Assembly: GCA_951406725.2 (NCBI GenBank)
Contig: OX597826.1
Location: 15,128,001-15,192,000 of the forward strand
Reading direction: 5' to 3'
Length of the DNA: 64,000 nucleotides
Source of the DNA: Octopus vulgaris
Lineage: Eukaryota
Of this stretch, positions 16,887 through 55,550 are shown in pieces. A program made the position numbers and the translations under genes. The stretch's first letter is position 1. Each line of letters begins with the position of its first letter. The notes beneath the pieces are model-generated. The model saw only the letters and a program-made list of their open reading frames with translations, did no database searches and had not been told where the DNA came from.

Positions 16887-17059
16887 GGGAGAGTTTACGA
16901 AATAAGACAAAAGACGAAGACATGTGGTGTACAAAACAAACAGATATATTACTATAGCGCTCAAGAATAGAAAAAGTCTTTTACGTTTCGAGCCTACGCT
17001 CTTCAACAGAAAAGGACACAGAAAAAAACAAGGAGAGAAAAATAGGAGAGAAAAAAAGA
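16887..17059 (-). mobile_element. Solo 3' terminus (pLTR fragment) of the Neptune-like PLE, containing a minimal HHR-like motif at 16978-17014
   Basis: Homologous to 48608-48790, 50826-50972 and 55355-55550; minus strand tttt CTGTTGA agagcgtaggctc GAAA cg TA aaag. Confidence 0.75.
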
Positions 17060-17069
17060 TGTATGTATG

Positions 17070-17600
17070 TTTGTCATTGTTCAGTTTTATTTCAAGATTT
17101 CTTGCCAATAGAGAAAGAGCCAGTTTCTAACCTAGATCTAAGGCTCTTTCATTGGGATTTCAACATCAAGAACAGGGTATTTTTGTATGTGTGTATGTAT
17201 GTATGTATGTATGTATGTATGTATGTATGTATGTATGTATGTATGCATGCATGCATTTATGTATGCATGTATGTATGCATATATGCATGTATGTGTATGT
17301 GTAGATTTGTATATTTTGCGTTATGTATGTATTCTCATGCGTATAGTTGCATATCTAAACATGCTCATACATATTTAAATGCTAAACTTCTGGAAAGTTT
17401 TACAGATTTTTACATTTCCAGTAATGGATTGGATCTGCAGTCTTCGAATTAGCTTTCTCCTTTCTGGCTTTGAGAAGCCTAATTTCTCAAGATTGGTATT
17501 TAGGCAGTGTGTTACATATCCCATGGCCTCAATAATTACATGTATAAACCTGAACATATAATCTGAATAGAGTAACTGCAGATTTTTCAGTAGTTCAACG
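17070..17600 (-). mobile_element. R4/Dong-like (RLE-type) non-LTR retrotransposon 3' fragment
   Basis: ELLKNLQLLYSDYMFRFIHVIIEAMGYVTHCLNTNLEKLGFSKPERRKLIRRLQIQSITGNVKICKTFQKFSI* is homologous to ORF 59331-59597; its 3' UTR (17075-17185) resembles 59590-59685. Confidence 0.75.
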
Positions 17601-17724
17601 TAAGTATTTTATGTATGTATGCATGTATGTATGTATGTATGTATGTATGTACGTACGTATGTATATATGCATGTACGTATGCTTGTATGCGTGCATGATG
17701 TAGGTGTGTATGTATATAATTCTT

Positions 17725-18350
17725 TTTTTTTTATTATTCATTACAAATATTTCTGGAAGGCGAGAGCTAGTTCCTAACACCAAACAGAAGCGCCATCATT
17801 CGAATTCGGAAGACAACAACGATGATACAAATCGAATTTCAGAAAGTTTTATATATTTTTACTATTCTTCTTATTGATCATGCCTTGAAGTTTCTGTCAA
17901 ATGGTCTCTTTTTCTCTCCCTTTCTTTCTTTCTCTATCTCCTATCCCCCTCTCTCTTTCTCTCTTTTTGCTTGAGAATCCTAACTTTTCCAGATTGTTGC
18001 CTTGACATTTGCTAACATAACCAAGTCCACAAATGATTTTTGGAATAAATGTTAATTTGAAATCATAGGAGACGACTTACAGTTTTCGAAGCAGTTGTAT
18101 GTCCATAAATATTCTCCTTCTCGTTCATCTTGGAAGAGATGTTCACATTTGTAGCGTAGCTACTTCGATGGCGGTACATCACTTCTATTCGTTCCCAAAG
18201 AACTATGTTCGATCTTTTATGTTTGCACTTGGTAGAAGCTTTAATCCGAAATATATTGAGAATGTACCATCAACAGTCCTTGTGTATGTATTCCATGGCA
18301 GGATTTTAAAAATATTTCCCCGGGACATTTTTCCTGCAGATAGTGTGGTA
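17725..18350 (-). mobile_element. Second, more decayed R4/Dong-like 3' fragment
   Basis: Minus strand reads approximately IYGHTTASKTV..FKLTFIPKIICGLGYVSKCQGNNLEKLGFS with frameshifts; similar 3' UTR. Confidence 0.55.
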
Positions 18351-18364
18351 TATAGTTCTATCTT

Positions 18365-18735
18365 TTACTTGTTTCAATCATTAGACTGTCACCCTGCTGT
18401 AATACCTCCTTGAACCTGTGAGGTCGAATGAATCGACTACAGTGCTTCTCTTTCGTTTTAAAGCCTGGTATTATTCTATCGGGCTCTTTTGCTGAATCTC
18501 TAAGTTACAGAAATGTAAACACACCAGCACCGGTTGTCAAGTGGTGATGGAAAACAAAGAGAGACACACAGACACAAACGCGCGCGCACACACATACACA
18601 TGGAATATGCTTTTTTTAGTTTCCTACCAAATCCTCTCACAAAGCTTTAGAAGACTCGAAGCTATAATAGATGACACTTGCCAACGTACCATGCAGTCTG
18701 GGATGCAAGCTTCTTACCACACGCCCATGCTTGTC
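18365..18735 (-). mobile_element. SINE family A, degenerate
   Basis: ttacttgtttcaatcatt..ttattctatcgggctcttttgctgaa..gtaaacacaccagcaccggttgtcaag..gacacttgcc. Confidence 0.65.
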
Positions 18736-18912
18736 GCAGTCGGAGATGACATTTTGCGTAGTTGTTAATTATATACACCTTGCTCTCCGAAAAAAAGAAT
18801 GATATAATCGGTACAACAGCATTATAGACCTCCGGGCAATCTAAGGCACTGAGATTTCAAAATTCATAACAGCATACAAAGATTCGCGTCAGGTCCTTAT
18901 ACTCAAAGTGAT

Positions 18913-52235: not shown

Positions 52236-52921
52236 TGAGCGGCACGAACATTTTATCATTACAAGAAAATCGATTAAAGCGGCCGCACATTAAAACTTTA
52301 TCACTCAACTTGATCTGCTTTACTTCTGTTATAGAATAATTAGTGATGGACATTATAAGCATTCGGAGGATAAATCTAGAATATAGTTCCATGGGAATTA
52401 TTTTGTATTTGACAACGCTCTGTTCTGAGACCGAGGGCTTATCTTTATTTCAATAATAAAAATCATAACTTTTATTTCTTTACACTCTTTCGCATGCTTT
52501 TTTCTTAATTATTCTTAATGATTATCGTAGGATTTTAACATAAAAGCGTAATATTTACTTCAAAAGGGTGGAAAAGAATTGTAATTATTAGAATTTTGCA
52601 ATACAGGAAGAGAAAATAAAAGAGACAAAAAGAATTGAAATTTATAATATGGTGTAAGGGAGGTAACCCTGGGAATATGTTAAAGTACCTTCCCTTGAAA
52701 ACACCGGTCTTAGAATCATCACTACTAGGACGCTGATAACAAATGCTTTATGTACCTCTGTTCGTTATCTATATTATGTATGTAGACATGTATATATATA
52801 TATATATATATATATATATATATATACACACACACTAACATACACAACAAGTATATATATCGTTTGTAGAAAACATAAATCCGAAAGAAGAGCACACTCT
52901 AAGATGTAGAGCAGTATATAT

Positions 52922-53345
52922 GAGTGGCTGTGTGGAAAGTAGCTTGCTTACCAACCTCATGGTTCCGGGTTCAGTCCCACTGCGTGGCACCTTGGGCACG
53001 TGTCTTCTAATATAGCCTCGGGCCGACCAAAGCCTTGTGAGTGGATTTGGTAGACGGAAACTGAAAGAAGACCGTCGTATATATATATATATATATATAT
53101 ATATATATATATGTGTGTGTGTATGTGTGTGTATATGTTTGTGTCTGTGTTTGTCCCTCCCAACATCGCTTGACAACCGATGGTGGTGTGTTTACGTCCC
53201 CCGTAACTTAGAGGTTCGGCAAAAGAGACCGATAGAATAAGTACTAGGCTTACAAAGAATAAGTCCCGGGGTCGATTTGCTCAACCAAAGGCGGTGCTCC
53301 AGCATGGCCACAGTCACATGACTGAAACAAATAAAAGAATAAAAG
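52922..53345 (+). mobile_element. SINE family A, full length, young
   Basis: Near-identical to 36335-36730 and 54141-54525. Confidence 0.92.
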
Positions 53346-53364
53346 AGTATATATATATATATAA

Positions 53365-53532
53365 TTTATATAATTAGGGTTTAGCAAAAAATTTGCTTTG
53401 CCACAATATTTTTGCTGAACCCTAATTATATAAAGTAATGTTTAGGTTTACCGTAAATGGTCCTTTTAACATACTGAACACTGCTTGGTAAAATTATTAA
53501 TTACTAATTAATTAATTAATTTTACCCTTTAT
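53365..53532 (+). mobile_element. Short element with a terminal hairpin, same family as 15691-15990
   Basis: 26-bp inverted repeat 53365-53390/53409-53434 with 1 mismatch, followed by a homologous tail; lies between (TA)n and (TTA)n. Confidence 0.55.
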
Positions 53533-54140
53533 TATTATTATTATTATTATTATTATTATTATTATTATTATTATTATTATTATTATTATCATACATATAT
53601 ATATATGTTTGTAAAGCTTCGTACTTATTCCATTAGCCGCTTTTCCCGAACCGCTAAGTTACGCATATGTAAACGCACCAACATTGGTTGTCAAGCGGTG
53701 ATGGTGGTGGGGGTACAAACACACACATACGGAGACACATACGGGTGCACGCATACACCTACACACCCACACACATGTACACACACGCACAGACACACAG
53801 ACACACAGACACACACTTGCGCACACGATGGGCTTCTTTCAGTCTCAGTTCCTCACACTGGGCTTTGGTCGACCTGTGGCTATAGCAAAAAAAAAAAATT
53901 TGCCCTATGTTCCTCGCAGTAAGACTGAACCCGAAGCCATGACTTTGGAAGTATAAGTTCTTGGCCCACAGCCACATACATCTATATATCTACACATATA
54001 TTGATGTACGTGTGCATATTTATCTATCTATCTATCGATCTATTTATATACATACATACATGCATATATATATATATATATATATATATATATATATATA
54101 TATATATATATATATATATATATATATATTTTTTTTTTTT

Positions 54141-54525
54141 TTACTTGTTTCAGTCATTTTGACTGCGGCCATGCTGGAGCACCGCCTTTAATCGAGCAAC
54201 TCAACCCCGGGACTTATTCTTTGCAAGCCCAGTACTTATTATATCGGTCTCCTTTGCCGAACCGCTAAGTGACGGGGACATAAACACACCAGCATCGGTT
54301 GTCAAGCAATGCTAGGGGGACAAACACAGACACACAAACATACACGCACATACACATATATACGACGGGCTTCTTTCAGTTTCCGTCTACCAAATCCACT
54401 CACAAGGCTTTGGTCGGCCCGAGGCTATAGTAGAAGACACCTGCCCAAGGTGCCACGCGGTGGGACTGAACCCGGAACCATGTGGTTGGTAAACAAGTTA
54501 CTTACCACACAGCCACTCCTGCGCC
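54141..54525 (-). mobile_element. SINE family A, full length, young
   Basis: Complete reverse-complement copy ending ccactcctgcgcc. Confidence 0.92.
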
Positions 54526-55354
54526 TATATATTTGTATATATATATATATATATATATATATACATATATATATATATATATAATATGCACACACACGTG
54601 TGTGTGTTGTAATACCTGAAGTTTCGAGGGCCCTTATCTCTTCTGTACTTTTCCCAAAACCGCAGACATCTACATGGTATATATATGACTGCATTCTAAA
54701 AATACTTTTGCCTTATTTTATCTGAACAAACACATGAACCCATATCATGGCAGAAAATGTTCATGAGGCTAGCGTTGTTCATCTCTCTTTTATGAGGAAG
54801 CGAAAAAGAGTGTTTTGGAGTAGGTTGTGACTCCAAGACTTTCCCCATCTCACTTAACTTAGTTCAATTATGTGTGGTGGCTCCCTGTCCACGATGTCAT
54901 TCCGCCGGTCACTGTGTTTCTAGATGAAGCAGGATAGGGACGTGGAAATTTTCTTATTCCTGTAATTGAAGGGTTACACCCCTCTTTAAAAATTGCCGAG
55001 TACACCTCCCTTTAAAATCGCAATCTCACACCTTGTCTCTGCGTGAGACTACACATACTCTTCGACGTTTATATGTTTGTATTACAGGTTTTGAAGAATG
55101 GGAGGAGATTAAATAATCGATCCTGTATCCATTTTGTGTTAACTTATGGGGAAGGATTGTGAACCAGTGGTGGGTGGACGAACAAAAAGCCTCAAACAAA
55201 AGTACATGTACACATTTACATTTTGGCCGTATTCCACACAACTTCTGTCCAAAACATTCGCTCGTAAGCGTTTGGTTGACCAAAGGCTATAGTACAATAC
55301 ACTTGGCCAAGCTGGCACAGTGCGGGACTAAATTCGAATCCACCAGTCACCATG

Positions 55355-55550
55355 ATAGATCGTTAGCCACCACAAACATTTTTTTCTCTCCTTGTTTCTC
55401 TCCTTGTTTTTTTTCTGTGTCCCTTTCTGTAGAAGAGCGTATGCTCGAAACGTAAAAGACGTTTTCTATTCCTGAGCGTTATACTAATACATCTGTTTGT
55501 TTTGTACACCACCTGTCTTCGTCTTTTGTTTTTTTCGTAAACTGTCTCTA
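55355..55550 (+). mobile_element. Solo Neptune-like PLE 3' terminus with an HHR-like motif (55423-55458)
   Basis: cttt CTGTAGA agagcgtatgctc GAAA cg TA aaag; the rest is the reverse complement of 16887-17059. Confidence 0.75.

Follow-up and report, generated by a model that had tools for sequence, protein, structure and literature searches.

The 64,000 nucleotides of the Octopus vulgaris genome analyzed here (assembly GCA_951406725.2, contig OX597826.1, positions 15,128,001 to 15,192,000; referred to as the window) contain four copies of a hammerhead-like RNA motif in which the normally conserved A at position 6 of the core is replaced by U. The motif lies in the terminal repeat of a Penelope-like element (PLE), and the question raised by this locus is whether such a U6 motif is a working ribozyme or a repurposed structure. 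It is read here, with moderate confidence, as a minimal type I hammerhead with an A6 to U change, which would be fold-competent but attenuated, cleaving slowly or conditionally with the help of a dimer partner or a protein. A slow or conditional ribozyme is a middle option beside the other two, and in our analysis it is favoured by the literature.

The U6 motif in the window and in the genome

The pattern CTGTWGA..GAAACGTW was matched four times in the window, a number reached by none of 100 shuffled sequences (mean 0.06), and the four motifs with U6 and the AACGTW end lie where the original prediction had placed them. They belong to the following fragments:

16881 to 17057, reverse strand: solo 3' fragment of a PLE pseudo-long terminal repeat (pLTR); motif from C3 to H17 at 17009-16982, with U6, U7 and A as H17
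48706 to 48740 (pattern match 48711-48735), reverse strand: hammerhead-like motif of a truncated PLE copy, with U6, U7, U as H17 and a 5-bp stem I
50824 to 50963, reverse strand: pLTR fragment of an old subfamily; motif at 50955-50928, with U6, U7 and A as H17
55347 to 55554, forward strand: solo 3' pLTR fragment; motif at 55427-55454, with U6, A7, A as H17, a 4-bp stem I and loop II GUAU

The common layout of the four motifs is C3 U4 G5 U6 N7 G8 A9, an unpaired A, stem II (GAGC/GCUC), GAAA, CG, U and H17. Stem II of the copy at 48711 is destroyed by a 3-nt deletion, which is present in the sequence as had been pointed out and is private to this copy (1/59 motifs in young copies). Stem I, originally described for all four copies, is intact apart from one U.G at 2.4 in the copy at 16982-17009(-) and is broken in the copy at 50928-50955(-), where 2/4 pairs are formed (CCTC/AAAG). 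An Rfam scan of the window gave 0 matches at gathering score, and for four loci including two canonical A6 motifs no hammerhead family was reported at E<=10. Since Rfam also misses canonical minimal motifs, its silence is uninformative on U6.

A genome-wide count at constant stem II gave 16,854 exact-stem copies, of which 16,207 (96%) have U at base 6, 196 have A and 451 have C or G; the reversed-pattern controls gave 0. U6 is a family-wide core variant, as proposed; a canonical CTGA consensus, which had been named beforehand as refuting, was not found. The family is far larger than the four copies from which it was postulated, and the copies in the window come from different subfamilies. A standard CUGANGA descriptor would indeed miss the motif, as published descriptor strings fix A6.

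For a motif-independent sample, 100 loci were taken by flank words, of which 94 were distinct; 14 without motif region were dropped and 80 were scored. Among these, base 6 is U in 71, A in four and C in five copies, N7 is distributed as U51/C15/A10/G4 and H17 as A65/U7/C5/G3. Each of the other core bases (C3, U4, G5, G8, A9, G12, A13, A14, A15.1 and U16.1) is kept in 72-78 of the 80 copies, and all of them are invariant in one alignment of the motif. The core has to be written CUGUNGA instead of the CUGUWGA originally given, as N7 takes all four bases. The unpaired base after A9, G10.1-C11.1 and the short stems I and II are present in the U6 motif, with stem I at 50928 and stem II at 48711 as exceptions, and 57/59 motifs of young copies are identical.

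Clustering of 198 copies on their flanks resulted in six subfamilies (129 copies; 69 in small clusters were left out) whose flanks are up to 0.37 apart. Their majority lines vary at 3/38 motif columns (N7, H17 and pair 1.4) and at 35/95 downstream columns (Fisher p=0.0006; 0.0075 and 0.0016 at two other cut-offs), in a sample that is partly motif-selected and over alignment columns that are not independent. The claim that the motif is better conserved than its flanks agrees with this comparison. Within the core, only N7 and H17 vary across subfamilies, which are the two free positions of a hammerhead, and G17 is the majority base in no subfamily. Base 6 varied at one of three clustering cut-offs, A6 loci having been added on purpose. 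Changes in both stem II and loop II are seen in three old U6 copies (L124, L125 and L146; two are identical, with a U.U mismatch and a UUCG loop), which perhaps form a minor subfamily.

The carrier element

The carrier of the motif is represented in the window by two overlapping features:

48608 to 50493, reverse strand: 5'-truncated young Neptune-type PLE copy between (TA)n tracts, with reverse transcriptase (RT) thumb, CX4CxxC linker, GIY-YIG endonuclease, 3' untranslated region (UTR) and pLTR
49267 to 50493, reverse strand: open frame, C-terminal part of the PLE open reading frame (ORF), with a translation matching genomic copies

The stretch 48601-50498 matches the full PLE unit at 94.5%, which places the 48706 motif at the 3' end of a coding PLE, as had been stated. 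Residues 1-332 of the frame (49498-50493(-)) were found with 98-100% identity and no stops in 121/121 scored places, drawn from 24,267 candidates in this microsatellite-rich genome of 2.8 Gb, and the PLE family is therefore young. An identical U6 motif is located both upstream and downstream of the ORF, and sense to it, in 11/16 fetched single-ORF regions; the remaining 5/16 are 5'-truncated downstream of the motif. The PLE unit comprises 4,482 bp (motifs 4.48 kb apart) and forms arrays of up to three motifs with 99.7% identity. The upstream motif lies ~760 nt before the likely ORF start, and the distance from H17 to the 3' (TA)n end is 103 nt in intact copies. No canonical hammerhead core was detected in a scan of one full PLE unit.

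Frames of up to 1214 aa without stops encode RT followed by GIY-YIG in a single ORF. The protein matches RVT_1 with 32.7 bits (cut-off 29.6) and, weakly, GIY-YIG (E=0.0046, below its cut-off), and it carries a CX2-5CxxC linker and a CCHH motif. These two are features of the Neptune clade, as are the partial-tandem pLTR structure and the (TA)n flanks of the element. Neptune-clade PLE features were reportedly described by Arkhipova in 2006. The single RT-then-GIY-YIG ORF, the linker, the CCHH motif, partial tandems and microsatellite targets are shared with the Neptune clade PLEs of Craig 2021 (PMC8557442), and the protein resembles, by eye, the Neptune1_Ap rows in the supplement of that paper. 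By domain, linker, CCHH and tandem features, and not by an RT tree, the carrier is classified as a Neptune-type PLE, in whose pLTR the motif has its origin, in line with the original prediction.

Further observations concern the same element. Its 3' UTR (window 48901-49228 (-)) contains an internal duplication with a ~120 bp period and 79% identity, seen in every full-length copy that was compared. Both the U6 lineage and its A6 sister lineage, described below, retain a GAGCG word 20-30 nt past the cut site (L101:2631-2637 and 2721-2727); in the young element a complementary word closely follows the tandem junction, and the two pair in the predicted fold. The window also contains a long interspersed nuclear element (LINE)-type element at 37776-40067 (+), in which a zf-RVT frame comes after an RVT_1 frame of 534 aa; this element is unrelated to the motif.

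Ancestry and a second U6 family

A sister lineage with A6 has stem II, the start of stem I and the CG palindrome in common with the U6 lineage, as well as a word downstream and the spacing to the 3' end; flank similarity is modest (z 1.9-4.6). Of the first 100 of its 3,073 matches, 99 have A6. In a tree built on 200 of 235 rows after masking of bases 6-7, with the A6 sister as outgroup, the U6 lineage together with one A6 sister-type copy at its base is split from the outgroup with a support of 1.0. The eleven copies that branch off next comprise ten with U6 and one with C6, and the remaining A6 copies take nested positions (inner supports weak). The search of 80 metagenome loci of related PLEs, many too short for the 3' end, with a descriptor free at base 6 resulted in 24 hits, comprising 23 A6, one G6 and no U6. 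Neptune-related elements sampled in this way thus carry canonical A6 hammerheads, unlike the U6 lineage. Because A6 is found in the sister lineage and in related PLEs and the early branches of the lineage are mostly U6, this sequence comparison indicates that U6 is derived from an A6 motif, old within the lineage and lineage-specific. Homology to minimal PLE hammerheads, as originally proposed, is supported.

A basal A6 subfamily inside the U6 lineage was considered and rejected, since the A6 copies are nested and scattered; they are taken for point mutants, with a small revertant group possibly among them. Three A6U7 copies (L032, L206 and L485) cluster with a support of 0.75 within an old U6 subfamily and may be such a revertant subfamily; a few C6U7 copies cluster weakly. 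Another, very abundant family with a canonical A6 minimal hammerhead (stem II GGCUG/CAGCC) is represented in the window at 34605-34789 (-), core 34668-34700, beside an (AAT)n tract, and a further copy of it (L132) is found close to the remnant of a PLE endonuclease. U6 motifs in viral contigs were discarded as a candidate: 68 loci matched the pattern, none with both stems of at least 3 bp.

A search with free stems revealed a distinct U6 motif (L145). Its pattern yielded 81 matches, of which one from another family was excluded; the other 80 have U6 in 77, A6 in two and C6 in one case. The motif is part of non-coding ~160-bp tandem arrays in (TAA)n-type tracts (L145, L171-L200, L189), for example eight units with a period of 146-167 bp and a hammerhead motif per unit at L189:1335-2456. 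C3, U4, G5, G8, A9, GAAA, U16.1 and H17 are retained. A parent PLE was sought in 30 3-kb and 20 10-kb loci, which gave no PLE protein match. Flank homology to the main family is absent (z about 0), and the second family is on this ground likely of independent origin. Like the non-LTR retrozymes (Cervera & De la Pena 2020, PMC7229834), it consists of short non-coding tandem units, each with a type I hammerhead motif; it differs from them in unit length (146-167 bp against 170-400 nt), in its minimal architecture and in the U6 core.

Covariation of the stems, which had been proposed as a check, gave a divided result. Within the main family the stems are invariant, show no compensatory change and are uninformative, whereas between the two U6 families 8/9 stem pairs are changed on both sides and still pair. 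In 19 hand-picked stem-forming rows, which represent only two U6 lineages, 97% of the cells pair, a value equalled by 0/500 shuffles, with slid controls at 20-42%. Bases 15.2-16.2, permitting a dimer stem III, are palindromic in both families (CG in the main and UA in the second family), and the predicted self-duplex has -5.5 kcal/mol. A closed hairpin with a U6-A15.1 pair appears in the minimum free energy folds of both U6 families; relative to A6 it gains 1.5 kcal/mol in the main family and 0.0 kcal/mol in the second, and it was rejected as the main explanation.

Proposed attenuated cleavage and its alternatives

The closest known relatives are the minimal hammerheads of metazoan PLEs (Cervera & De la Pena 2014, PMC4209133). 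Shared with them are the short stem I, the unpaired base between 9 and 10.1, G10.1-C11.1, a palindromic 15.2-16.2 without loop 3, the position in both pLTRs and the occurrence of thousands of solo copies. Their consensus is CUGANGAH, with A6 in all readable rows of Fig. S3, whereas the U6 motif departs from A6 without a compensating change. Judged by sequence, it is descended from the minimal PLE hammerheads and would function as they do, but it lacks the A6 that characterizes them and is therefore classed as a variant, not as a member.

Cleavage by minimal PLE hammerheads is weak and requires a dimer or an extended form (PMC4209133). Natural core variants are known, namely a compensatory U3-A8 (PMC4209133) and A6C, which cuts below 0.1/min (PMC3088659). 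For A6C, 3.55e-6/min was measured in 0.3 mM Mg2+, an about 10^5-fold loss, versus 0.18/min in Mn2+ (PMC7151607). This Bcep176 hammerhead (Perreault 2011, PMC3088659; Naghdi 2020, PMC7151607) likewise combines a naturally occurring pyrimidine at position 6 with a core that is intact elsewhere; it is a single, assayed phage sequence, whereas U6 is fixed in an animal retrotransposon lineage of >16,000 copies and in a second repeat family. The Poseidon PLE of Anolis (Frangieh 2024, PMC11167929) has a hammerhead that needed the element's protein and was dispensable for in vitro insertion. It is a pLTR hammerhead read through by RT, as here, and neither RNA-seq ends at the cut site there nor a junction pile-up here was seen. 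The differences are that Poseidon is another PLE clade, that its hammerhead overlaps the ORF start and that cleavage was shown, while the motif studied here precedes the likely start by ~760 nt and is separated from the 3' end by 103 nt. The literature compared also includes PMC6765202, PMC11014351, PMC6155905 and bioRxiv 10.64898/2026.07.22.740005. A6U was not found by full-text search, in the readable Fig. S3 rows of PMC4209133 or in the text of two supplements, whose figures were maybe not captured; the work of Lunse et al. 2017, which deals with small hammerhead variants of PLEs, lies outside this search and may, with low probability, hold U6 rows.

The reading as an attenuated ribozyme is consistent with all core bases besides A6, G10.1-C11.1 and the palindromic stem III being kept. 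In a tandem transcript, two motifs at a distance of 4.48 kb would pair via AACGUW and thereby complete stem III. U6 would weaken the uridine turn as A6C does, and cleavage in Mg2+ would be rare unless aided by the element's own protein or another ion. Reverse transcription would start at the (UA)n end and would have to cross an intact H17 bond; as the bond is needed in this step, attenuation may cost little, and slow cleavage could be tolerated or even favoured. Occasional cleavage, perhaps with re-ligation, would free unit-length RNA.

Several results weigh against this reading. In a pairwise-mutant screen, mutants of the CUGA region were low in activity and unrescued, except for a C3-G8 swap (PMC9901934), and no assay of A6U itself was found in the literature compared. 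Base 6 is slightly looser than the other core U's (9/80 vs 6/160, p=0.04). As 60/95 flank columns are invariant, invariance of a single column is weak evidence, and loop II (GUAG) varies no more than the core in the 80 flank-selected copies, which also fits sequence-specific binding of a protein. Finally, among the first 100 matches listed, counted by eye and without an A6 control, 5' junctions are not in excess at the cut site (2/31 distinct junctions over ~58 nt, about 2 expected). Cleavage-defined 5' ends were considered as a candidate and are not supported, as 11/16 long copies also run through the upstream motif; this comparison is not discriminating without the A6 control.

The alternative that survives best, though we consider it rather doubtful, is that the motif no longer cuts and has been retained, as a fold or as a sequence, to serve the RT-endonuclease protein as a signal for binding or folding. 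Such a signal would agree with the near-dead CUGA-turn mutants (PMC9901934), with catalytic mutants that had no effect on in vitro insertion (PMC11167929), with the lack of a junction excess and the invariant loop II, and with Naiad PLEs, which proliferate without canonical hammerheads (PMC8557442). Weighing against it are the observations that the variable positions are the two left free by catalysis, with G17 never a subfamily majority, and that the unrelated second family keeps C3, U4, G5, G8, A9, GAAA, U16.1 and H17; the U6-A15.1 hairpin, in addition, would stabilize the main family by 1.5 kcal/mol and the second not at all.

A bolder form of the attenuated ribozyme, which appears unlikely, is an adaptive switch that has arisen twice: A6U would be off in Mg2+ and fire only when licensed by the element's RT-endonuclease protein (or Mn2+), keeping the template intact and timing RNA processing. 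Somewhat less probable still is a fully working U6 motif, in which protein, dimer or a new tertiary contact replaces A6 and the rate is normal for minimal PLE hammerheads. The persistence of U6 through several N7 changes into the youngest subfamily, its recurrence in a non-coding tandem repeat of a kind thought to be cleavage-dependent, and the protein assistance known for PLE hammerheads (PMC11167929) speak for full activity, and against it stand the CUGA mutants without second-site rescue (PMC9901934), a remaining core without compensating change and the A6 in 23/24 hits in related PLE loci. A functionless relic inside the terminal repeat of a successful element is the least probable explanation: the content of a master is passed to every copy, hammerheads may 'simply parasitize PLEs' (PMC8557442) and base 6 is slightly relaxed, but the motif varies less than its downstream flank, within the limits of that comparison given above.

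For the attenuated ribozyme, as for the other readings, the meaning lies in the role of hammerheads in PLEs, which is debated as RNA processing or mere passenger (PMC8557442, PMC4209133). The octopus genome provides matched natural pairs, namely a young amplified U6 lineage, an A6 sister with the same stem II and an unrelated U6 repeat. Censuses with a fixed CUGANGA miss the U6 class (16,207 copies), which is here about as numerous as the canonical one (21,282 genome matches by a looser A6 pattern, control 635). Single-base swaps between the U6 and A6 lineages would be a direct test of whether cleavage rate matters, and whether such elements need RNA cutting at all.

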